A stretch of DNA of 64,000 nt, taken from an uncultured Clostridia bacterium (GTDB taxonomy: Bacteria; Bacillota; Clostridia; Christensenellales; Borkfalkiaceae). Made by a program: the position numbers and the translations under genes. Of this stretch, positions 10,619-55,451 are shown one piece after another. The notes below the pieces were generated by a model, which made no database searches, was not told the DNA's origin, and saw nothing but the letters and a program-made list of their open reading frames with translations. The stretch lies in the NCBI GenBank assembly GCA_934271735.1, contig CAKQSB010000005.1, positions 86,614 through 150,613 of the forward strand, given 5' to 3'. Positions within the stretch are counted from its first letter, which is position 1; the number at the start of each line of letters is the position of its first letter.

Positions 10619-11578
10619 ATGAAAAAAATAGCAATACTCACAAGCGGCGGAGACGCCCCGGGAATGAACGCCTGCATAAGGGCGTGCGTAAGAAGCGCGG
10701 TCAACAGCGGACTTGAAGTTTACGGCGTTGAAAGAGGTTACTTCGGACTTGTAAACAACTGCATCTTCCCGATGACTACCCACTCCGTGTGCGATATCGT
10801 CCAGAGAGGCGGCACAATTTTAAAAACCGCAAGATGTCTCGACTTCAAACTTCCCGAAACGAGAAAGAAAGCCGCGGACAACCTTAAAGCTCTCGGTATC
10901 GAAGGTCTTGTCGTAATCGGCGGCGACGGTTCGTTCACCGGCGCAAGACTTTTGTCCGACGAAAACGGAATCAACGTCGTGGGTATTCCCGGCACAATCG
11001 ATAACGACCTTGCTTATACCGACTACACTCTCGGTTTCGACACCGCGGTAAACACCGTTCTCTGGGCAATCAACAACCTCAGAGACACCATGACCTCTCA
11101 CGACAGAGTTTCGCTCGTCAAAGTTATGGGCAGACGTTGCGGAGATATCGCGCTTTACTCGGGTATCTGCGGCGGCGCGGAATATATCCTCGTTCCCGAA
11201 ATTCCTTACGATATTCAGGCTATCGCCGAAGATATCAAAAAGAGTAAGGAAAGAGGCAAAACTTCCAACATCATCGTTTTGGCGGAAGGCGCGGGCAACG
11301 AACAGGAAATCAAAACCATCGTTTCGGTTATCAGCGGCGCGGACGTTAAAGTTACTACTCTCGGTCACATTCAGAGAGGCGGCACGCCCACTATGGCGGA
11401 CAGAATGCTCGCCGCGAGATTCGGCACGAGAGCCACCGAACTTTTAATCGAGGGCAAGACCAACAGAGTTATCGGTATCAAACACAATAAAATAGTCGAT
11501 CTCGATATAACGGAAGCACTTTCCGAAACAAAGAAAATCGACAAAAAGCTTTACGATATGGCGGCTAAACTCTGCTAA
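10619..11578 (+). CDS. pfkA: ATP-dependent 6-phosphofructokinase.
   Basis: 319 aa. TSGGDAPGMNA, GGDGS and IPGTIDND motifs. Strong RBS (aaggaggtaaacat ATG). Confidence 0.9.
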   Translation: MKKIAILTSGGDAPGMNACIRACVRSAVNSGLEVYGVERGYFGLVNNCIFPMTTHSVCDIVQRGGTILKTARCLDFKLPETRKKAADNLKALGIEGLVVIGGDGSFTGARLLSDENGINVVGIPGTIDNDLAYTDYTLGFDTAVNTVLWAINNLRDTMTSHDRVSLVKVMGRRCGDIALYSGICGGAEYILVPEIPYDIQAIAEDIKKSKERGKTSNIIVLAEGAGNEQEIKTIVSVISGADVKVTTLGHIQRGGTPTMADRMLAARFGTRATELLIEGKTNRVIGIKHNKIVDLDITEALSETKKIDKKLYDMAAKLC

Positions 11579-11605: not shown

Positions 11606-12838
11606 ATGAAAAATCTTAAAGGAAGATGCGTTTTCGCTCAATCGGGCGGACCTACCACGGTTATAAACGCGAGTATTGCGGGCGGACTTCTGGAGGCTCT
11701 CGACAGCGAAAACATCACGGGCGTTTTGTGCGCTCATCACGGAATAAAAGGCGTTCTGGACGAGGACTTTTTCGATATTTCGGCGGAAGACAGAGCCGAG
11801 TTGGAAGCTCTCAAATACACGCCCGCTTCGGCGTTCGGTTCGGTCAGATATAAGCTCAAAAATCCCGCCGAGGACGATTCCGATTATCGCAGAATTTTGG
11901 AGGTTTTCAAAAAATACGACGTTCGTTATTTTTTCTATAACGGCGGCAACGACAGTATGGATACCTGCGATAAAATCTCGAAATATATGCAGAAATCGGG
12001 TTACGATATGAACGTTATCGGTATTCCGAAAACAATCGATAACGACCTTTGCGGCACAGACCACTGCCCCGGCTACGGCAGCGCGGCGAAATACATAGCC
12101 AACTCCGTTATGGAAGTGAACAGAGACGCCGAGATTTACTATTCCCCGCTTGTCATAATCGTGGAGATTATGGGCAGAAACGCGGGCTGGCTCACCGCGG
12201 CAAGCAGACTTGCTTCCGTAAACGGCGACGGCGCCGACCTTATTTATCTTCCCGAAGTTCCTTTCTGTTACGAGAAATTTTTGAGAGACGTTAAAAAGGT
12301 AGTGGACGAAAAAAATCACTGCGTCGTAGCGGTTTCCGAGGGAATACGTTTTGCGGACGGCAGATACGTCGGCGAAGACGGCAGCTCGGTGGACGATTTC
12401 GGACATTCTCAGCTCGGCGGCGTTTGTTCGGCTTTGAAAGCGCAGGTCAAAACGCTCGGAATAAAGTGCAAGGCTATCGAACTTAACATTCTGCAACGCT
12501 GCGCGGCGCACTGCGCTTCGGAAACGGACATTGAGGAGTCATTTTCGGCAGGGCGTTATGCCGTTAAAAAAGCCATAGAAGGCGAAACCGACAAGATGAT
12601 CGGTTTTAGAAGAAAGGGCGGAAACAATTACGAAATCGAATACGTTGCCGAACCGCTTTCCTCCGCGGCGAACGCCGAAAAGAAAATCCCTGCCGAATGG
12701 ATAACGGAAGACGGCACGAGCCTTACCGAAGATTTTGTTTCCTATGCTCTTCCCCTTATTTCGGGCGAACCCAAACGCAGGCTCAAAAACGGACTTCCCG
12801 AATACGCAAAGCTTAAATTCGTAAAGATTAAGCTTTAA
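11606..12838 (+). CDS. Second phosphofructokinase paralog (long-form, possibly PPi-dependent).
   Basis: 410 aa. GGPTTVINAS, GGNDS and PKTIDNDL PFK-family motifs. Longer, divergent paralog directly after pfkA. Confidence 0.7.
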   Translation: MKNLKGRCVFAQSGGPTTVINASIAGGLLEALDSENITGVLCAHHGIKGVLDEDFFDISAEDRAELEALKYTPASAFGSVRYKLKNPAEDDSDYRRILEVFKKYDVRYFFYNGGNDSMDTCDKISKYMQKSGYDMNVIGIPKTIDNDLCGTDHCPGYGSAAKYIANSVMEVNRDAEIYYSPLVIIVEIMGRNAGWLTAASRLASVNGDGADLIYLPEVPFCYEKFLRDVKKVVDEKNHCVVAVSEGIRFADGRYVGEDGSSVDDFGHSQLGGVCSALKAQVKTLGIKCKAIELNILQRCAAHCASETDIEESFSAGRYAVKKAIEGETDKMIGFRRKGGNNYEIEYVAEPLSSAANAEKKIPAEWITEDGTSLTEDFVSYALPLISGEPKRRLKNGLPEYAKLKFVKIKL

Positions 12839-17459: not shown

Positions 17460-17630
17460 GTTTCTTGCCGTCGGATTATGTCGTTTTTTGTTGTCGTTAT
17501 TTGCAGATTTTTGCTGTCGCAACATGTCGCAATATACCGTCGTATTATGTCGTTTCACGCCGTCGGGATTTGCAATATTCTGCCGTCGAAGCTTGTCATA
17601 ATACGCCGTCGGGATTTGCCGTTTTCCGCC
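17460..17630. repeat. Degenerate tandem direct repeats with a 23 bp period (about 5-7 units), core (G/C)CCGTCGG(G)ATT(A/T)TG.
   Basis: Four contiguous units at 17535/17558/17581/17604 and a further unit at 17465. Lies between convergent aminopeptidase and mmcQ-like genes. ORFs crossing it are low-complexity. Confidence 0.6.
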
Positions 17631-17632
17631 GC

Positions 17633-20036: not shown

Positions 20037-20058
20037 TTTTTCGTCCTTTAAATTTTGC

Positions 20059-20150
20059 CCGAAAGCAGTTGCCCTCCGCAAACTTTTGTCCGAAAGCAGT
20101 TGCCCTTCGCAAACTTTTGTCCGAAAGCGATTGCTCTCCGCAAATAAAAC
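20059..20150. repeat. 3 x 31 bp tandem direct repeat (ccgaaagcagttgccctccgcaaacttttgt) in the yloV-recG spacer, in the recG leader.
   Basis: Units at 20059-20089 and 20090-20120 are near identical. The third unit (20121-20150) is degenerate. Confidence 0.7.
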
Positions 20151-37366: not shown

Positions 37367-38515
37367 ATGAAGAAAATGAGAAAGACGGCGATAATTGCCG
37401 CCATATCCCTTTTGGTTTTATCTTTCGTCACGTTCTTTTCGGGCATACAGATTATGCGTGCGGAAAAAAGCGGCGCGGAAACAAATAAAACCGGTGAAAT
37501 TACCGACGTAATCACGGTAAAAAGCCCGATTCAGGGTTCGACGGTTACTTTGGACAATGAAAAAATCGCCGATTATTTCGAGCATTACTCCAAAGGCTAC
37601 AGCGTCAAAGCGGGTTACTTCGGGCAAGGCGATATTTTTATGATGAACCCCGTTAAATTCGAGTGGGAATGCGAGGACGGTTTATATTATCAGTTATATA
37701 TCGCCGACAATCTCGGGTTTTACGACGCAGAGAAATTCTTCACGACAAAGAATTACGCGGTGATCGAAAACCTCGTTCCCGAAACAAAGTATTACTGGAA
37801 AGTTAAGGTCGCTTTAAGCGGCGGCGAAGAAAAAACTTCCAAATCCTATTGTTTTGAAACGAAAGGCAACGTAAGAACCATAACTTTGGACGGAGTTTCC
37901 AACTCAAGAGACCTGGGCGGAATAAAAACCGCCGACGGAAAAGAAATAAAATACGGAATGGTTTATCGTTCCGCAAATCTTGATTCCGTTACCGAAAAAG
38001 GCAGAGCCGAGGCAAGAAGGCTCGGAATAAAAACCGACCTCGATTTACGCGGCGGAGACGCCCCGACTGCTTCCCCTCTCGGCTCAAATGTCAATCTTAT
38101 CGCAAAAAAAGCTCCGTGCTACACCGGCGACCCCTTTGGAATCAACGGCACGGAAGAATATCGCAATGCTTTAAGAGACGAAATAAAAGTTTTTGCATAT
38201 GAAGAAAACTACCCCGTCCTTTTTCATTGTCAGATAGGCAGAGACAGAACGGGAACTCTCGCAATGTTTATCTTGGCGATTTGCGGAGTTGAAAAAGAAG
38301 AAATTCTCAAAGATTACGAGCTGACATATTTCTCTCAGAACGGTACGACGGACGGCAAAACCGAATGTCCCGATTGGATCGATTATACCTGCGATTTTCT
38401 CGGCACGCTTTCCGAAACCGGCACGACGCTGAGCGAAAAAGCAATAAATTACGCTATAAGTCTCGGCGTTACCGAAACGGAGATAGCCTCCATTAAAAGA
38501 ATTTTAACGAGGTGA
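37367..38515 (+). CDS. Secreted or membrane-anchored protein: signal/anchor, FN3-like domain, protein tyrosine/dual-specificity phosphatase domain.
   Basis: 382 aa. N-terminal hydrophobic segment. HCQIGRDRTG CX5R P-loop. RBS caggaggaaaaa ATG. Confidence 0.75.
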   Translation: MKKMRKTAIIAAISLLVLSFVTFFSGIQIMRAEKSGAETNKTGEITDVITVKSPIQGSTVTLDNEKIADYFEHYSKGYSVKAGYFGQGDIFMMNPVKFEWECEDGLYYQLYIADNLGFYDAEKFFTTKNYAVIENLVPETKYYWKVKVALSGGEEKTSKSYCFETKGNVRTITLDGVSNSRDLGGIKTADGKEIKYGMVYRSANLDSVTEKGRAEARRLGIKTDLDLRGGDAPTASPLGSNVNLIAKKAPCYTGDPFGINGTEEYRNALRDEIKVFAYEENYPVLFHCQIGRDRTGTLAMFILAICGVEKEEILKDYELTYFSQNGTTDGKTECPDWIDYTCDFLGTLSETGTTLSEKAINYAISLGVTETEIASIKRILTR

Positions 38516-40533
38516 CGAATATGAAAAAATTATTTTTAATTCTTACGATAATTTTATCTTCCGTTTTATGTCTTACCTTTACGGGCGGTTCGCAGAAAAC
38601 GCTTGCGGAAAACAGCGGCAACGTTTACGATATATCCGAAGTTTCGTCGATCGCTCCCGGCGGAGAGTTGGAATTTTACGGACAACTTCTCATGGTCGGC
38701 AACAAACAGCTCGAAAATAAGGATTCCGTCAAATTTCTTTACAAAATAGCAAACCTCGAAAAATACGTTCGTTCGGCCTTCGGAATAGGCTGTTACGGAT
38801 TCTATTTCAGTTATGACGTCGGCAAACCGATTTCCGTTAAAAAATGCGATTTTAACGGAAGCAAATGGGGGCGCGCCGAAGAAGTTTTTTCGGAAACCGA
38901 AACGACGTCATTTTCCGATTATATAGAAATGACTCTTAAAATCGAAGAAACCGCCGAAAACAAGATAACTCTTTCCCTTTCTTACGAAATCGGCGGTAAA
39001 CAAAGAAGCGTGTCGGCGGAGTTTGATAAAGCGGAATCCGATATGAAACTTCGTTTCGGTGAAAACGCCGATCAACAGTATTCCGAAGTTTACATAAAAT
39101 CTTTACTGCCCGCCGCCACTTTCGGAGACGGTTCGTTTGAGTATGTAAACTACAACAATAACGCAGGGAAAAACATTTCGGGAAAATGCATGCTCGGAAC
39201 GGTCGGAACTTCCGATGCGGAAAAATTCGGCGTTCCGTCGGGTTATAACGGAAACGTTCTCAAAATCGAAGGACTTACCCCCACCGGTTCGCTCGATATG
39301 TCGTTCGATTTTTCCGCCGCAAACATAAAGAGAGAACGCGTAAAAAGCATTTCTTTCAGAATTTACGTTACGGCTACTTCTTCCGATACGGACAAATATC
39401 CCGTTCTGCGCGTTCCGAATTACGGAAGCACGTCGGCTTTCACGGCATATCCCGTAGGAAACAATACAAACAAATGGTTAAACGTTTCTTTCAACGAAAA
39501 CCAGATCGATAACATCTGCTCCGCCGGAAAGCTCACGAAATTCACGTTATGGTTCAGAACAAACGCCAGAACGATTATTTATATCGATTCGTTTAAGGTC
39601 GATCTTATTCCTCTGGACGAAACGCCGCCCGTTATAAGCGCGCCTATTACCGAATTTAATCTGACCGCCGGAGTTTATCCTCTCGACGATTCGGTTACCG
39701 CTACCGACGATTCGGGAGAGGTGAGTTTACAAAGAATCTGGTCGGACGGAGCCTTGGATAATCGCGGAAGGCTTACGGCGGGAACGCATACCTGCAAAGT
39801 TATAGCGACGGATCCGAGCGGAAATACAAGCGAAGTCACCTTACATTATAACGTTACGACAGAAGCCGATCTCGAAAAATATTCGATTACCTTCCGTTTC
39901 GAGGGAATAGACGAAGTTACCGTCGAATATTACAAAGGCGGGGAAGATTACGTTACTATTCCTTCCGTACCCGAGAGAAAACACTACGATTTCGTCACCG
40001 ACGAGATTGTATTCAACTACACCTCTAATCAGGTCGTGAACGGATATTACGTCGCCACCGTTTATAAGGTAAATTATTATGTTGACGGCGCGCTTTACAC
40101 CTCTGTTTCTTATACCGTAGAAAATATTTACAATTTTGCAGAACCCGACGTTCCCGCAAAAAAAGGCTGTCGCGGACAATGGGAGGACTATCTGCTTAAT
40201 TATGAAAACGTGAACGTAAACGCCGTGTATACGCCTAAAGAAACTTCGTCGGAATCCGAAAAAGAAACCCCTTCGGAAAGCGAAAGCAAATCCGAAAAAG
40301 AAACCCCTTCGGAAAGCGAAAGCAAATCCGAAAACGAAACTGAAAGCAAATCCGGAATTCCGGGAACGGAATCCGCGGGAAACGCGTCGGATAATAACAC
40401 CCCGAGCGCCACGGAAAGCGGAAAAACTGAAAACAAAGGTTGCGGTTCTGCGGCAAACGCAACGCCGATTGCACTGCTTGTCGTTTTGTTCTCGTCTCTT
40501 GCGGCTGTAATGATAAAACGCAAACAAAGCTAA
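38512..40533 (+). CDS. Large secreted protein with a Ser/Glu-rich tandem repeat and a C-terminal hydrophobic helix plus KRKQS tail (no LPXTG).
   Basis: 673 aa. Signal peptide. 2 x perfect 36 bp repeat at 40255-40326 encoding SEKETPSESESK. C-terminal ...ATPIALLVVLFSSLAAVMIKRKQS. Start overlaps the upstream gene stop. Confidence 0.7.
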   Translation: MTNMKKLFLILTIILSSVLCLTFTGGSQKTLAENSGNVYDISEVSSIAPGGELEFYGQLLMVGNKQLENKDSVKFLYKIANLEKYVRSAFGIGCYGFYFSYDVGKPISVKKCDFNGSKWGRAEEVFSETETTSFSDYIEMTLKIEETAENKITLSLSYEIGGKQRSVSAEFDKAESDMKLRFGENADQQYSEVYIKSLLPAATFGDGSFEYVNYNNNAGKNISGKCMLGTVGTSDAEKFGVPSGYNGNVLKIEGLTPTGSLDMSFDFSAANIKRERVKSISFRIYVTATSSDTDKYPVLRVPNYGSTSAFTAYPVGNNTNKWLNVSFNENQIDNICSAGKLTKFTLWFRTNARTIIYIDSFKVDLIPLDETPPVISAPITEFNLTAGVYPLDDSVTATDDSGEVSLQRIWSDGALDNRGRLTAGTHTCKVIATDPSGNTSEVTLHYNVTTEADLEKYSITFRFEGIDEVTVEYYKGGEDYVTIPSVPERKHYDFVTDEIVFNYTSNQVVNGYYVATVYKVNYYVDGALYTSVSYTVENIYNFAEPDVPAKKGCRGQWEDYLLNYENVNVNAVYTPKETSSESEKETPSESESKSEKETPSESESKSENETESKSGIPGTESAGNASDNNTPSATESGKTENKGCGSAANATPIALLVVLFSSLAAVMIKRKQS

Positions 40534-40556
40534 TAGCCGATACACCTCATTAAATG

Positions 40557-40595
40557 TCGGAGCGCGATAAAAACGCTCCGATATTTTTATATTTT
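40557..40595 (+). terminator. Terminator hairpin tcggagcg...cgctccga followed by tatttttatatttt.
   Basis: Read directly. Confidence 0.5.
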
Positions 40596-40810
40596 CGGTT
40601 CACCGCCGCTTATAGCCGCATATTTACCTGTTATTTTAAGTTTTTTTGCTTGCTTTTATATTGTTTTAATGTTAGAATAGAAAAAGACGGACTTCAAACC
40701 GTCTGAACGAATATTACGCGCCGAGATAATTTTGTAGGGGCGTTTCAATCGTTCGCCCGAGAAAAATAAAATCACGACAAAACATTTTTGCTTATACGAG
40801 GTACAATTCA

Positions 40811-42016
40811 ATGAAAAACGTAATGGACGTTCTCGAAGAACGCGGATTTATAAAACAGACCGTTTACGGCGAAGACTTGAGAAAGAAACTCGAAACCGAA
40901 AGCGTTACATTTTACGTCGGCTTCGACCCGACGGCGGACAGTCTCCATATCGGACATTATATTCCCATTATGGCAATGGCTTGGATGCAGAGATACGGTC
41001 ATCGCCCCATCGCGCTTTTCGGCGGCGGCACGGGCATGATCGGCGACCCCTCGGGCAGATCGGATATGCGCCAGATGATGACGAGAGAGACTATCGACCA
41101 CAATATCGAATGCTTTAAAAAGCAAATGTCCCGTTTCATAAATTTCGATGGAGAAAACGGCGCGATAATCGCCAACAACGCGGACTGGCTTTTAGACCTT
41201 AATTATATCGAATTCCTCCGCGATATCGGCGTTTACTTCTCCGTAAACAAAATGCTCACGGCGGAATGTTTCAAACAGCGAATGGAAAAGGGGCTTACCT
41301 TCTTTGAATTTAACTATATGTTAATGCAGGGTTACGACTTTTTGCATCTCAACCAAAAATACGGCTGCTCGCTTGAGGTGGGCGGCGATGATCAGTGGTC
41401 GAATATGCTCGCGGGCGTGGACCTTATCCGCAGAAAGGAACAGAAGGACGCTTACTGCTTAACCTGCACTCTCCTTTTGAACAGCGAAGGCAAAAAAATG
41501 GGCAAAACGCAGAAAGGCGCGCTCTGGCTCGACGAAAACAAATGCTCCGTTTACGATTTCTATCAGTATTTCAGAAACGTTGAAGACTGCAAAGTTGCGG
41601 AGTGTATGCGTCTTTTAACCTTTATGGATATGGACGAAATCGCCGAACTTACCAGATATAACGACGAGAGAATGAACGCGGCTAAGGAAAGACTTGCTTA
41701 CGAAGTTACCAAGCTCGTTCACGGCGAGAAAAAAGCCGAACAGGCAAGAAAGCAGGCTAAGGCGGCATTCGGCGGCAACGCGGAAGATATGCCCTCTTAC
41801 AACGCAAACGGCGCGGATAACATTCTCGACATTATGATCGGCGCGGGCGTTGCCAAATCCAAGGGCGAAGCGAGAAGACTTATCGAGGGCGGCGGCGTTT
41901 CTATAGGCGACGTTAAGCTCACCGTGAACGATCTCGCGATCTCTCCCGAAGTCAAAGCCAAAGGCAACTTTATTCTCCACAAAGGCAAAAAAGTTCACAT
42001 CAACGTTATTTTATAA
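40811..42016 (+). CDS. tyrS: Tyrosine--tRNA ligase.
   Basis: 401 aa. HIGHY (HIGH), [19 protein letters not shown] (KMSKS), C-terminal S4 domain. Confidence 0.95.
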
Positions 42017-42028
42017 CATATTTTATTA

Positions 42029-42075
42029 AAAAAAACGTCGTTTGGCAGTACCCTGTCGGACGACGTTTTGTTTTT
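42029..42075 (+). terminator. Rho-independent terminator of tyrS.
   Basis: aaaaaaacgtcg...cgacgttttgttttt. Confidence 0.65.
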
Positions 42076-42120
42076 ACTTTTTTAAGAAATATTTTTATTA
42101 TCAAATTTAATCGATTTTAT

Positions 42121-42480
42121 TTCGACCGATTTCGCCACGACTTAATCCGACAAAATTCTCCACGACTTGATCCGACAATTTTCAACCCGGCTTAATCCGT
42201 CAGATTTCGACTTGTCTTTTTTCGACCGATTTCGACCTGTCTTAATCCGACAAGTTTCGACTTGGCTTGTTTCGACAAATTTCGATTTTGTTTTTTCGAC
42301 CGGATTCGCCCCGATTTATTCCGACAATTTTCGACTTGATTTATTCGACAAAATTCTCCCCGACTTTATCCGACGGCTTTCTCCGCTCACCGATTTCGAC
42401 GACCTTCGTTTTATTATTACACGCGTTCGATTTCGTTTCGACGGTTTTCGACGTTTGTCGACGGTTTTCGACGCAATACT
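42121..42480. repeat. Degenerate tandem array of about 12-14 units with an ~25 bp period, unit TTCGAC(N6-8)CTTAATCCGACAANT.
   Basis: Units start at about 42121, 42146, 42181, 42206, 42231, 42256, 42281 and onward. The 194 aa ORF through it (42167..42751) is low-complexity and not credible. Confidence 0.65.
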
Positions 42481-42740
42481 TTACGCCCTTAGGTGTTTAA
42501 TCTGTTTACTTCACCTTATGATTATGCTAAAATATTTTAGCCGAGTGAAGTTTTATGCGGCTAAGATTTTGGAAACGAATTTCGGTAAAAAAATGTCTGA
42601 AAATACAGGGGGTCGGCAAAAGTTTGCAAGAGAATTTTCGGCATTTTACAACAAACTAACGCTCGCACACCGACAAAGACGTAAAGATAACGCGAGTCGA
42701 AAAGCCGAACAAAAAAAACGAAAATTCACGCAGAAAAATT

Positions 42741-43190
42741 TTAAGTTCTGAAATCGGATCTGCCGAGAAGATAATCGGGCGAAACGCCGAAATAATCCGA
42801 TAAAATTTCCAAAGTGTCGATCATCGGGATAAACTTTTGTTTGAGCCAGTGCAAAATCAGGCTGTCGTCGATACCGCAATCGTGCCCGACCTTGTAAAAC
42901 GAAGTTTTCTTTTCGGCGCACAGTTCGAGAAATCGCTCGTGGAAAGTCGCGGCGGAATCGGTTTTGATAAAATCGTTCTCTTTGGTTTTTCCGAGAAGGT
43001 AATTGATTGACACTTCGAAATAATCGGCGATTTTAACGAGGATTTTCGTTGTCGGTATTATTCCGTATGCGGTTGCCGAAAAGAACGACGAATTGCTTAT
43101 GCCGATTTTCAATCTAAGTTCTGTTTTCGTCAGATACGTTTCATCCGCTAAATAATTTATTCTCTTCTTAAATGCTTCGGAAACAGGCAT
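42741..43190 (-). CDS. XRE-family regulator with two HTH_XRE domains.
   Basis: 149 aa. Two repeats each ending ...INYLLGK / ...PDYLLGRS. Confidence 0.75.
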   Translation of the reverse strand: MPVSEAFKKRINYLADETYLTKTELRLKIGISNSSFFSATAYGIIPTTKILVKIADYFEVSINYLLGKTKENDFIKTDSAATFHERFLELCAEKKTSFYKVGHDCGIDDSLILHWLKQKFIPMIDTLEILSDYFGVSPDYLLGRSDFRT

Positions 43191-43406
43191 ACAACCTCCA
43201 TTATCGACAAAGTGTATAATTCTTAATCTTCACCTATAAATAATATAATTTTGTTTACGGTTTTACTATGAACGATACGTTTAGTTTACCTAACGATAAA
43301 AGGAAATTTTAATGTAAAAACCGTCAAAAAAAAAGCATAAAACAAGAAAAAAACGGAAATGCCCGTTTTCGGATAAACAAAATAAAAAACAAAGGAGGAA
43401 TTCACA

Positions 43407-43748
43407 ATGAACATTGACTACGAAAAACTGGATTTTGTAAGCGAAACAAAGCCTATCTGCGGTTCTTTTTCCGAAAAACGCTATCAAAAAGCGTACGCCG
43501 ACACGCTGAAAAGATTTTTGAAATCGGCTGAAAAATACTACGCGCCCGGCGAATTCGACGAAAGACACGAGACCGAAATTTTCGAAAATCGTTTAAAACA
43601 ACGGTGCGCAACCCTCGCGACTTTTCCGGAAGAAGTTCTTAAAAAGCTTAAGAACTTCAGATTCCTTGTACTCGGATATTGTCACCGCGACGAAAAAACC
43701 GCTTTGGTTTCGTACTGTCTTCAGACGTGGAAAAAACGCCCCGATTGA
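43407..43748 (+). CDS. Small hypothetical protein (113 aa), divergent from the XRE gene.
   Basis: Strong RBS aaaggagga N7 ATG. No recognisable domain. Confidence 0.55.
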   Translation: MNIDYEKLDFVSETKPICGSFSEKRYQKAYADTLKRFLKSAEKYYAPGEFDERHETEIFENRLKQRCATLATFPEEVLKKLKNFRFLVLGYCHRDEKTALVSYCLQTWKKRPD

Positions 43749-43953: not shown

Positions 43954-44045
43954 GAATCCACACAAACATACGTTTTTGTGGATAACTGTGGATAACTTTC
44001 GGTAAAACAGGTGGGTTATCCACATTGTAGAAAAAGTTATCAACA
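43954..44045. promoter_or_regulatory. DnaA-box cluster with three perfect and two imperfect boxes.
   Basis: TGTGGATAA at 43977-43985 and 43987-43995 (reverse complement TTATCCACA). TTATCCACA at 44016-44024. TTATCAACA at 44037-44045. GAATCCACA at 43954-43962. Confidence 0.6.
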
Positions 44046-44290
44046 GAATTTGCTTGTTTACGGTGTTTTCAAGCCGAAAAAGTCTATGTGAAAATTTGTA
44101 TTAAATTTCGCATTTTTCGGCTTAGCCGAACTCGGGGTTTTTCCGGAAAAGCACGTCAAAAGCATTTACGACAAAAAATATCGGCGACTTAATCCTTAAA
44201 GAACTTAATCCTTAAAGATAAGCCGCCGACTTATATAATTTATGTTTGTTTTATTACGTTTTATATTCGTTACTTAGCGCCGTCGGAAAT

Positions 44291-53939: not shown

Positions 53940-55451
53940 TCAATCTTTTCTGTTGATAACGGAAATATCGAGTTCCATTCCGAGCTTGCCGTCGTTACCT
54001 TTTTCCACGGTAACCTTTCCGCTCGCTTCGTCCTTTATAACCTTTCTGTATTTTCCGCCGGTTATAAGTCCGCAGATATCGAAACTGTATTTTTCCCTTT
54101 CCGTAAGATACGGCATAAGCTCGTCCACGTTCTCTTTCGCAACGTAACCGACGTGATGCAAAGCCTTCATATCCCAGTCGTATATGTAAACTTTGATTTT
54201 ATCGCCGTCGACGACAAGTCCCGTACGCTTGAATTCCTGTTCCGCGTACTCGTAAACTATATCGTTTTCATACTCTTCTTTAATCTCGCTCATTTTAAGT
54301 CCGTCGTACTTATCGATATATCCGAGCTTGACGCCTTGTTTGATCTCTTCGTCGAGTATGTTCTTGACTTTTATACCCTCTTCGTTGTCCTTATCCGTTC
54401 CGATTACGTTCGCCGTGCAGTTGAACAGAATTTCGTTCGGTCTGTAAATAAGCTTTCTGCCGCGCTTAACGCAGATATTCGCGAGGATTTCCTCAAGATT
54501 TGCGGGAGCGGTAAGCTTGAACGCTTCTTTTTCGGGTTTCGCCTGCGGTTCGGATTGTTCCGCCGCTTCGGTTTCGTCCTTTTCTTCAGTCTCTTTCTCT
54601 TCGCTTTCCGCTTCTTCCGCGACTTCTTCGATTACGTCGGGAGTTTCTATCGCCGCTTCCACGATTTCTTCCGCTTCGGTCTCCTCTTCGGATTCTGTCG
54701 TTTCTTCCGCAACTTCTTCGGTCGCATCCGCTTCTTCGATAGCGTTTTCAACCGTTTCCACGGCTTCCTCCTCTTCCGTTTCGGGTTCTTCTTTAACTTC
54801 TTCCGCGGGAGCTTCTTCCTCGACTTCTTCGATTACGTCGGGGGTTTCTATCGCCGCTTCCACGGCTTCTTCCGCTTCGGTCTCCTCTTCGGATTCTGTC
54901 GTTTCTTCCGCAACTTCTTCGGTCGCGTCCGCTTCTTCGATAGCGTTTTCAACCGTTTCCACGGCTTCTTCCTCTTCCGTTTCGGGTTCTTCTTTAACTT
55001 CGTCTTCTGGAATCTCTTCAACCGATTCGGGAGATTCCTCGCCGTTTTCCGCCGCTAAATTTTCAACTTCCTCGGCAGTTCCGTCAAGACTTCCTTCCTC
55101 TTCGAGTATTTCGTCGGACTCCTCTTCGGTCGCATCCAAAGGAGTTTCGTCCAAACCTGTTTCCTCTGCCTGTTCGGTTTCCTCGCAAACAACCTCTTCC
55201 GTCTCTTTCGAAACTCCTTCCTCTTCGGGAGCAACCTCTTCTGCGGGAACTTCCGCTTCCGCGACTACTTCCTCATCAGCCGTAATCTCGTTTTCGGGTT
55301 CGATTACAGGTTCGACTACGTTTTCGGAATTATCGTTTTCGACGATTGCTTCGAGAACTTCCGTTCCCTCCGCAACCTCTTGCTCTTTACGTTCGTCGGT
55401 TACGACGCGATTTATTCTGATCGCCGACGGTCTCTTTTTCATTCTACGCAT
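53940..55451 (-). CDS. Highly acidic Glu/Thr/Ala-rich protein with a basic N-terminus, an internal ~70 aa tandem duplication and a C-terminal ~170 aa globular domain of unknown function.
   Basis: 503 aa. The opposite-strand ORFs 53874..55058 and 54517..55467 are low-complexity shadows. Confidence 0.6.
   Translation of the reverse strand: MRRMKKRPSAIRINRVVTDERKEQEVAEGTEVLEAIVENDNSENVVEPVIEPENEITADEEVVAEAEVPAEEVAPEEEGVSKETEEVVCEETEQAEETGLDETPLDATEEESDEILEEEGSLDGTAEEVENLAAENGEESPESVEEIPEDEVKEEPETEEEEAVETVENAIEEADATEEVAEETTESEEETEAEEAVEAAIETPDVIEEVEEEAPAEEVKEEPETEEEEAVETVENAIEEADATEEVAEETTESEEETEAEEIVEAAIETPDVIEEVAEEAESEEKETEEKDETEAAEQSEPQAKPEKEAFKLTAPANLEEILANICVKRGRKLIYRPNEILFNCTANVIGTDKDNEEGIKVKNILDEEIKQGVKLGYIDKYDGLKMSEIKEEYENDIVYEYAEQEFKRTGLVVDGDKIKVYIYDWDMKALHHVGYVAKENVDELMPYLTEREKYSFDICGLITGGKYRKVIKDEASGKVTVEKGNDGKLGMELDISVINRKD
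54590..55025. repeat. Near-perfect ~210 bp tandem duplication inside the acidic-protein gene.
   Basis: gacttcttcgattacgtcggg... recurs at about 54621 and 54832, with long identical runs (…ctcctcttcggattctgtcgtttcttccgcaacttcttcggtcgc…). Confidence 0.7.

Follow-up and report, generated by a model that had tools for sequence, protein, structure and literature searches.

A strain-variable array of phased boxes beside a two-HTH repressor gene in an uncultured Borkfalkiaceae bacterium: a candidate enlarged operator bank

Introduction

In a 64,000-nucleotide stretch of the genome of an uncultured Clostridia bacterium of the family Borkfalkiaceae (contig CAKQSB010000005.1), the gap between tyrS and the convergent gene of a small helix-turn-helix (HTH) protein holds about 28 copies of one short box. 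This whole stretch of 64 kb is called the window below, and all coordinates are positions in it unless a comparison locus or contig is named (labels such as L015 or L102). What is such an array for, and which protein would read it? It had been noticed in an original prediction made from the letters alone, which described a degenerate, noncoding tandem array of 12–14 units of about 25 bp at 42121–42480, likened it to plasmid iterons or centromere-like arrays, and supposed it to be one of a family of arrays dispersed over the genome. By comparing the locus with related loci, we arrive at a different reading, to which we assign a probability of about 0.5: the array would be an enlarged operator-like bank of about 28 phased boxes, belonging to a module made up of a two-HTH repressor gene and a DUF4085-like gene.

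Results

Architecture of the array

The array lies 3′ of tyrS and its terminator, and ahead of the stop codon of the minus-strand gene at 42741–43190. The elements of the locus are as follows:

42102–42400: distal array, 12 units of 25 bp with two CGAC-core boxes per unit
42427–42472: proximal array, four to five boxes with a 10-bp period and the consensus GGTTTTCGAC
42491–42516: AGGTG-N16-CACCT inverted repeat bracketing the −35 element of the convergent promoter, a candidate repressor operator
42505–42533, plus strand: predicted sigma-70 promoter (TTTACT, 17-bp spacer, TGcTAAAAT), a consensus prediction
42741–43190, minus strand: gene for a two-HTH XRE (phage-repressor-type) protein of 149 residues, with nothing beyond its two HTH domains
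43204–43210: single box TCGACAA (TTGTCGA on the strand of the HTH gene), directly upstream of the ribosome binding site (RBS) of that gene
43407–43748, plus strand: short DUF4085-like open reading frame (ORF) of 113 residues, divergent from the HTH gene
40811–42016, plus strand: tyrS, tyrosine-tRNA ligase of 401 residues (Pfam tRNA-synt_1b and SYY_C-terminal on an identical protein)
42032–42069: intrinsic terminator of tyrS, 17 stem pairs and a T-tail

Tandem Repeats Finder reported overlapping periods of 25, 50, and 74 bp across 42120–42374, with scores of 103–220, and a 10-bp array at 42436–42473. The limits and unit number given originally were essentially right, the true start being about 19 bp earlier, and the location downstream of tyrS is also correct, with the terminator standing between gene and array. 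Read in register, the distal units have the consensus ARATTTCGAC-nTGnC-TTAATCCGAC, and they are separated by a 29-bp spacer from the proximal 10-bp units, whose boxes are TTTCGACGG, TTTCGACGT, TGTCGACGG, and TTTCGACGC. It is the distal and proximal parts together that amount to about 28 copies of the box, which reads TTTCGAC or ATCCGACAA on the plus strand and RGTCGAA or TGTCGGA on the minus strand; half of the A-type boxes are degenerate (CGCC, CTCC, CAAC).

The clustering of these sequences is pronounced. CGAC occurs 23 times in 42100–42472 (first at 42123, last at 42469), with spacings that are almost all 10 and 15 bp, and the two 250-bp bins of the array contain 14 and 10 copies, against at most six in any other bin of the window. 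TTTCGAC was found 12 times in the roughly 350 bp of the array versus 28 times on the same strand of the other 63.6 kb. Seen on the minus strand, the 25-bp unit consists of a bipartite element of 17 bp (RGTCGAAAnTTGTCGGA; for instance, AGTCGAAACTTGTCGGA and AGTCGAAAATTGTCGGA) and an 8-bp linker. Each distal unit is therefore one bipartite two-box element of the module, repeated twelve-fold in the array upstream of the proximal boxes, which are conserved. The proximal part is the portion kept in the sister species and the counterpart of the two to five boxes of other species.

The boxes recur in a conserved gene module

Homologues of the HTH protein are encoded in Christensenellales metagenome-assembled genomes (MAGs) labelled Christensenellaceae, Borkfalkiaceae, or "Clostridia". 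The ten loci with the closest homologues (46–92% identity) have quite different neighbouring genes, and all ten carry (T/A/G)(T/C)CGACAA(A/T) boxes on the opposite strand, 68–160 bp past the HTH stop codon. In these relatives the motif is TTCGACAA, in 10-bp phase and usually in two to five copies. For example, the boxes of L102 are, in order, TCGACAAT, TCGACAAA, TAGACAAT, AAGACGAA, and TAGACAGG, with TAGACAAT and TCGACAAT boxes alternating in phase within one array, and those of L103 are TCGACAAA, AAGACCTT, TCGACAAT, and TCGACAAT. Some 20–35 bp downstream of the boxes follows a promoter close to consensus (TTTACA, 17-bp spacer, TAAAAT), which in most cases has a TG extension. Because the same boxes and promoter are present in ten loci with different neighbours, the array of the window can be read as the enlarged box cluster of the module.

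The promoter was predicted in the same position in 8 of the 11 loci scanned (the window, L015, L018, L022, L023, L024, L102, and L103), and an extended −10 element of the TGnTAWAAT type is readable in about 10 of the 11. The distance from the end of the −10 element to the end of the stop codon is 10–17 nucleotides in L018, L022, L024, L102, and L103, 82 nucleotides in L023, and 212–232 nucleotides in the window and L015. The predicted promoter of the window aims into the 3′ end of the HTH gene and is on the same strand as the DUF4085-like ORF; a transcript from it would be antisense to the HTH gene. The conservation of such an antisense promoter would imply a convergent-transcription switch, which appears not to have been described before.

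Two boxes in 10-bp phase were then sought in about 750 kb of non-redundant Christensenellales sequence, a sample biased towards HTH loci. When up to one mismatch over 14 positions was allowed, tandem boxes were found exclusively beside HTH genes (L020, L024, L025, L085, L102, and L103), and in the flanks of these genes TCGACA (3.5-fold) and CACCTA (5.7-fold) were the top enriched hexamers that are not AT-rich. The box adjoining the RBS is also present in L015, L018, L031, L039, and L053. Sites are found, then, in or next to the control regions of a repressor gene and recur across its orthologues, which is the pattern of an autoregulatory operator.

Additional motifs accompany the boxes. The AGGTG-N16-CACCT arrangement around the −35 element is also found in L024, in degenerate form in L015 (AGGCG) and L025 (CACCG), and the CACCTA motif forms inverted repeats in the divergent promoter region as well. 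This region, between the HTH and DUF4085-like genes, contains a CACCTATA-N-TATAGGTG palindrome (43231–43249 in the window; also in L020, L022–L025, L102, and L103), and the two arrangements together would constitute a second conserved operator-like motif of the module. In the more distant HTH homologues L035, L037, L038, and L050, (T/C)(A/C)GACAAT-N11-ATTGTC palindromes are located in the genes' own upstream regions.

The partner genes beside the HTH homologues show weak DUF4085 matches; the 113-residue ORF of the window is 36% identical to the partner protein of L020 over 50 residues (BLASTP, E=2e-9), and no match to the partner gene was found in defence-system or phage libraries. On comparative grounds, the two-HTH repressor, the DUF4085-like gene, the phased TTCGACAA boxes, and the antisense promoter appear to form an undescribed module conserved across gut Christensenellales.

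Two observations concern the surroundings of the module in other genomes. Beside the module of L020 (10640–10900) are two tRNA-3′-end-like stretches, each followed by the same terminator hairpin; this duplication suggests that an integration site was duplicated and, with it, that the module may be mobile. In L018, tandem repeats flank the module at 10742–11224 (183 bp, 2.7 copies) and 12052–12387 (102 bp, 3.3 copies), with copies 95–98% identical. The noncoding DNA downstream of the HTH gene is repeat-prone in more than one lineage.

Candidate binding proteins

As the candidate binder, we favour the two-HTH repressor itself over Spo0A, roughly two to one. The sequence comparison supports this candidate in that the boxes are exclusive to the neighbourhood of its gene family and stand at classic autoregulatory positions, and a single chain with two HTH domains would be a natural reader of a two-box site. 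The GACAAT palindromes upstream of the more distant homologues and the in-phase alternation of TAGACAAT and TCGACAAT boxes in L102 also speak for it. The protein matches HTH_3, HTH_19, and HTH_26 in Pfam, with RstR-like and phrog_8 matches in addition; of its two halves, the N-terminal one is similar to RstR and ImmR and the C-terminal one to P22 C2. Its AlphaFold model (mean predicted local distance difference test score, pLDDT, 93.5; predicted template modelling score, pTM, 0.86) has no oligomerisation domain. The solved structures that it matches (P22 C2, 434 Cro, ImmR, and SinR-N) each cover one half, and no two-domain equivalent was present among them. Operators of the 434 type use ACAA half-sites, and by this analogy the combination of 434/P22-like domains with ACAA half-sites would fit the two-HTH protein as binder.

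The multipartite operators of phage XRE repressors (lambda OL/OR, 434, P22, TP901-1 CI, and ImmR) are one close comparison, sharing with the locus an adjacent 434/P22/ImmR-like HTH protein, sites on both sides of the repressor gene, and ACAA-containing half-sites. The convergent arrangement also recalls the face-to-face promoters of coliphage 186/P2-type switches. Unlike in these systems, the repressor here carries both HTH domains on one chain that lacks a dimerisation domain, the sites are repeated directly and are not palindromic, their number is an order of magnitude above that of any phage operator, and no prophage genes are found near the array.

The competing candidate deserves a fuller account. 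If the boxes were Spo0A (0A) boxes, the array would be a tandem 0A-box bank, at which phosphorylated Spo0A (Spo0A~P) would activate the convergent promoter and, through the box in the 5′ untranslated region (UTR), repress the HTH gene, the extra units titrating or concentrating Spo0A~P; we regard this explanation as doubtful. In its favour, the conserved boxes read on the opposite strand as the 0A core TGTCGAA (TGTCGAA-N3-TGTCGAA). Perfect pairs of the core exactly 3 bp apart, TGTCGAA-CAT-TGTCGAA and TGTCGAA-GAT-TGTCGAA, were found in L102 and L103, one pair each, and L020, L024, and L025 are one mismatch away from perfect tandem cores. Spo0A represses abrB, whose tandem 0A boxes have a head-to-tail geometry of 7+3 bp, and this is matched by the 7-bp box and 3-bp spacer seen here. 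The bases reported to be contacted by Spo0A are G2, C4, and G5 of TGTCGAA (PMC3485338), and the invariant GTCG core of the array covers all three. The box also stays TTCGACAAA where the HTH protein is just 32–43% identical (L031, L039, and L053), and another GTCG-phased array is located outside the module, at 17.4 kb. Moreover, some Christensenellaceae sporulate (PMC12325933), and Spo0A of C. difficile controls the sin locus, which encodes XRE-type regulators (PMC7643835).

Against Spo0A stands the restriction of near-perfect tandem boxes to the neighbourhood of HTH genes in the HTH-biased 750 kb sample, which is not expected of a global regulator. Although the window boxes match TGTCGAA with G2, C4, and G5 kept, most of those in the array depart from it at one position, 1 or 6, and the TAGACAAT boxes of L102 and L018 break the G5 contact yet sit in phase with TCGACAAT boxes. 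Sporulation is predicted to be lacking in most Christensenellales MAGs (PMC12536801), and the literature on it in this order is mixed. No spo0A match was obtained by tblastn, with the B. subtilis protein as query, in about 64 kb plus overlapping contigs, a small part of the genome, and none of the annotated genes of the window is sporulation-specific. Compared with known 0A sites, such as abrB of B. subtilis and the clusters of phages phi29 and Nf, the locus has in common the reverse-complement core, the head-to-tail spacing in related loci, and, as at abrB, one box downstream of the promoter of a regulator gene. It differs in having about 28 boxes instead of two to four, in the deviations at position 1 or 6, and in the exclusive association of the boxes with one gene family.

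Two unrelated Clostridia MAGs have Spo0A-like genes no more than a few kb from XRE-type HTH genes: one for a 269-residue response regulator (L084, 5488–6297), with a near-tandem pair of 0A-like boxes about 40 bp upstream, and one for a stand-alone Spo0A_C-like protein of 121 residues (L059, 7977–8342).

Variation between strains and age of the array

Identical or almost identical neighbouring proteins are encoded on contigs from human-gut metagenomes, Hadza and Nepali samples among them. In 27 contigs of the species, the length of the array was measured between fixed anchors:

373–374 bp: 21 contigs
365 bp: 1 contig
348–349 bp: 4 contigs
323 bp: 1 contig

The usual count is 12 units, and none of the 27 contigs exceeds it. 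In the shorter arrays, one or two 25-bp units have been removed cleanly, and the sites of removal number at least three; the copy-number variation between strains that had been anticipated is therefore real and comprises at least three independent 25- or 50-bp deletions. Among 18 haplotypes, the density of single-nucleotide polymorphisms (SNPs) was 7% in the array versus 12% in the neighbouring spacer. None of the 18 differs in the four proximal CGAC boxes, and the lone SNP of that part, at 42434, falls in the degenerate leading unit.

Comparison of the 12 units with one another showed 6 of the 25 columns to be invariant (TT at 5–6, T20, CG at 22–23, and C25), with C7, TT at 16–17, and A24 kept in 11 of the 12; under uniform substitution across units, the probability of that many invariant columns is about 3e-5. 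Substitutions between units thus avoid the box cores, a sign of constraint on the array. The mean identity between units is 63%, and they form two subfamilies. In the sister species, tyrS is 94% identical and the HTH module 88–90%, so that units only 63% alike indicate an array that is old relative to the species and not the product of a recent burst; it is kept in all 27 contigs. The segment 42424–42537, with the proximal boxes and promoter, aligns to the sister locus L015 at 77% identity. The sister species keeps these elements, together with about ten degenerate 10-bp boxes, and has no 25-bp array; from the sequences, a gain here and a loss there would fit equally.

These data bear on a serious rival, namely that the distal units are a neutral minisatellite, in which replication slippage or unequal recombination amplified a stretch that by chance included operator boxes, leaving added units without a function. 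The absence of the 25-bp array from the sister species, the unit deletions segregating in the population, and the SNPs in box cores, which are not significantly depleted, all agree with it. So do the other, unrelated intergenic arrays of the window (23 bp ×7 at 17464, 31 bp ×3 at 20053, and 16 bp ×2 at 44187), by which the genome seems to be minisatellite-prone. On the other side, the units are 63% alike yet their box-core columns are invariant; their divergence far exceeds that between the species and its sister, yet the array is kept in every contig, usually with 12 units and never with more; and the 10- and 15-bp sub-spacing is preserved along its whole length. We consider a neutral origin improbable on balance; if it were true, the array would merely be useful as a strain-typing marker.

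Several points weigh against our preferred reading of the array as an operator bank. The loss of one or two units is tolerated in 5 of the 27 contigs, and the array must be dispensable for the module, since the sister species lacks it. Within the species, CGAC cores do not have significantly fewer SNPs (6/112 versus 21/260 positions, p=0.5), and the column test favours invariant cores, because the unit register was anchored on CGAC. Many boxes of the array are without the ACAA tail common to the palindromes of the family, so that a GTCGAA reader would suit the array no less well than a GACAA reader, and the CACCTATA..TATAGGTG palindrome in the divergent promoter of the close subfamily could be the true HTH operator. 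The GTCG-phased array at 17.4 kb, far from HTH genes, hints at a factor outside the module. Finally, the promoter is a consensus prediction, and occupation of the boxes and transcription are what we infer from the letters.

The array at 17.4 kb

The supposed family of arrays rested on a second array:

17464–17631: seven units of 23 bp, GCCGTCG-N-TGTCG, between the terminator-like hairpin of a pepV-like gene and the stop codon of yjbR

Its main box is GCCGTCGGAWTT, and its GTCG spacings are 10 and 13 bp. Strain variation is seen here too, L106 and L108 having lost 46 bp (two units), and the array is present in the sister species with 9–10 units, where the 25-bp array is absent. The placement at convergent gene junctions proved correct for both arrays, each of which directly follows a hairpin that ends a plus-strand gene, although the hairpin at 17.4 kb was not called as a terminator by the terminator scan. 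The shared core fared less well. The 9-mer GTCGGATTA is literally common to both arrays, with exact copies at 17470 (plus strand) and at 42143 and 42243 (minus strand), but with one mismatch allowed it has 24 matches in the window versus 21.6 in shuffled sequences, which is no enrichment.

What the arrays do share is a short GTCGGAWT core, clearer in the sister species, and the 10-bp sub-spacing. They differ in unit length (23 versus 25 bp), GTCG spacing (10+13 versus 10+15 bp), box flanks (GCCGTCG versus TTGTCGGA and RGTCGAA), genomic partner, and history, and only 2 of the 30 best window matches to a position weight matrix built from the 23-bp arrays fall in the 42-kb array. They do not, therefore, share one architecture, and the evidence for a family is weak beyond the short core; a common binding factor is possible and not strongly supported. 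A metagenome scan for GTCG-N6-GTCG-N9-11-GTCG-N6-GTCG-N9-11-GTCG, a pattern that is too permissive, gave nothing like the 42-kb array among the matches listed, which were (GTCGA)n and (GTCGT)n microsatellites and environmental contigs.

Coding, CRISPR, RNA, and replicon readings

The array is noncoding, as had been proposed. A 194-residue ORF (42167–42751), the only long one, crosses it, and is broken in other strains by 25-bp and 1-bp insertions or deletions that shift its frame; the period of 25 bp is not a multiple of three, and most gene callers skip the ORF. Clustered regularly interspaced short palindromic repeats (CRISPR) were likewise rejected, in line with the first description: the units, with their 25-bp period and mean identity of 63%, abut head to tail with no unique spacers between them. 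No cas genes were found among the neighbours (tyrS, the HTH gene, the DUF4085-like gene, two degV genes, and a UvrD-like helicase gene), where PADLOC returned weak HTH-type matches only.

A structured RNA can be discarded as well, as both strands fold worse than shuffled sequences (z-scores of +1.0 and +2.1), and Rfam gave nothing for the array at gathering thresholds and two sub-threshold matches to eukaryotic miRNAs at E≤1. There remains a role as unstructured RNA, in which the array would form a 3′ UTR of about 670 nucleotides of the HTH mRNA, with the motif UUGUCGGA or GUCGAAA bound by an RNA-binding protein. The scan found no terminator-like site between the HTH stop codon and tyrS other than 42032–42069, which, with an A-run before its stem and a T-run after it, could act in both directions, so that the array would be transcribed as part of the HTH message. 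The same box next to the Shine-Dalgarno sequence in the HTH 5′ UTR and the low structure expected of single-stranded, protein-binding RNA are in keeping with this. We nevertheless consider it very unlikely: the 10-bp phasing and the fixed place upstream of a promoter are hallmarks of DNA recognition, no Rfam family matches, the module has no candidate RNA-binding protein, and the convergent promoter would oppose read-through.

In form, the array does resemble plasmid iterons and the parC/tubC centromere repeats, being composed of at least ten direct repeats of 10–25 bp in helical phase, that is, of phased boxes of the protein-binding type; to this extent the comparison first drawn was apt. Its being the iterons or centromere-like site of a replicon or a degraded integrated element might also be supported by the low GC content (0.39) of the 2.2-kb stretch at 42.0–44.3 kb, the DnaA-box cluster 1.5 kb away (43977–44037), and the differing context of the HTH module between species, including the duplicated tRNA-3′-end-like stretches of L020. 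There are, besides, phage contigs with 10-bp GTCGAA arrays, one of which (L134) lies beside DnaA boxes. The viral scan, however, yielded ten unrelated phage intergenic arrays, often in high-GC contexts, with no link to the module. No rep, parA, parM, tubZ, integrase, or relaxase gene is located within 20 kb, and neither a Rep-like gene among the annotated genes of the window nor a partition NTPase (ParA, ParM, or TubZ) or centromere-binding operon in the window or syntenic contigs was found; the sole DNA-binding gene adjoining the array is the two-HTH XRE gene.

The array is instead flanked by housekeeping genes, which keep their synteny in the sister species and in every strain: tyrS, two degV genes, a UvrD-type (pcrA-like) helicase gene, pyrG, a glutamine synthetase gene, and dnaE, with lepA, aspS, metK, trpS, murB, and whiA nearby. 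An origin or terminus of replication was rejected, given that the cumulative GC skew passes smoothly through the region, without inflection, and that the DnaA-box cluster is missing from every HTH-module locus other than those of the window and the sister species. A replicon site is accordingly about as improbable as the RNA role. As the boxes are part of the conserved two-HTH module and its convergent promoter, they are better taken as a cluster of transcription-regulatory operators, and the array is a regulatory oddity, not a plasmid origin, a centromere, or a CRISPR.

Other features of the window

The DnaA boxes at 43977–44037, within about 60 bp, comprise two tandem copies of TGTGGATAA and one copy each of TTATCCACA and TTATCAACA. 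They lie in the 540-bp noncoding gap between the DUF4085-like ORF and degV, with no dnaA gene nearby, and are conserved in the sister species (L015, 8994–9054); the cluster may be DnaA-titrating or regulatory. Close to it, at 44187–44218, just downstream of the degV stop codon (44291), is a perfect 16-bp direct repeat, ACTTAATCCTTAAAGA, in two copies. A third intergenic array, at 20053–20144, has three units of 31 bp (TTTTGTCCGAAAGCAGTTGCCCTCCGCAAAC, 90% matches), is situated between a fakA/yloV-like gene and recG, and overlaps the start of the longest recG ORF.

Upstream of tyrS, the 277-bp leader (40534–40810) gave no T-box match in Rfam even at E≤1; a tyrS without a T-box is unusual in Firmicutes. 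Repeats are also present within coding sequences. At 54610–55001, a 201-bp unit is found twice (96% matches) inside a minus-strand ORF of 503 residues (53940–55451), and at 40237–40381, repeats of 18/36 bp encode SESESK-type motifs near the C-terminus of a secreted protein of 673 residues (38512–40533), the gene for which, like its neighbour at 37367–38515, is absent from the sister species.

Discussion

If the boxes are indeed operators, a mechanism can be proposed for the locus. A DNA-binding protein, most probably the two-HTH repressor with each of its HTH domains on a separate box, would bind cooperatively along the helix, and its presence on the proximal boxes would set the activity of the convergent promoter. 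Convergent transcription would oppose expression of the HTH gene, by collision or by antisense pairing, and could read on into the DUF4085-like gene, while the box adjoining the RBS would allow direct autoregulation of the HTH gene. The 12 distal units, with about 24 extra sites, might then act as a local reservoir, as a sink (decoy) that raises the threshold, or as a roadblock, and the loss of units in some strains would shift the threshold of the switch.

A more specific proposal, and a speculative one that we put forward at long odds, is that the array is a natural "operator sponge", in which some 24 decoy sites for the two-HTH repressor or Spo0A set the threshold of the convergent-promoter switch and strains tune it in steps of 25-bp units. 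The closest parallels are titration loci such as E. coli datA and the DnaA-box clusters of B. subtilis, which are likewise noncoding clusters of many boxes outside the main site of the protein, and like them the array could buffer free protein. In contrast to these loci, its boxes are not those of DnaA, it is strictly tandem and phased, and titration here is hypothetical. In synthetic systems, arrays that titrate transcription factors or act as decoys for them have been studied extensively, and to our knowledge few natural bacterial examples exist beyond DnaA-box clusters.

If the reading as an enlarged operator bank is true, about 28 strain-variable sites beside their probable regulator would offer an experimentally tractable case of natural titration. 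The identity of the box to the Spo0A consensus also raises the question of whether the module is wired to Spo0A in a group of bacteria in which the ability to sporulate is patchy.

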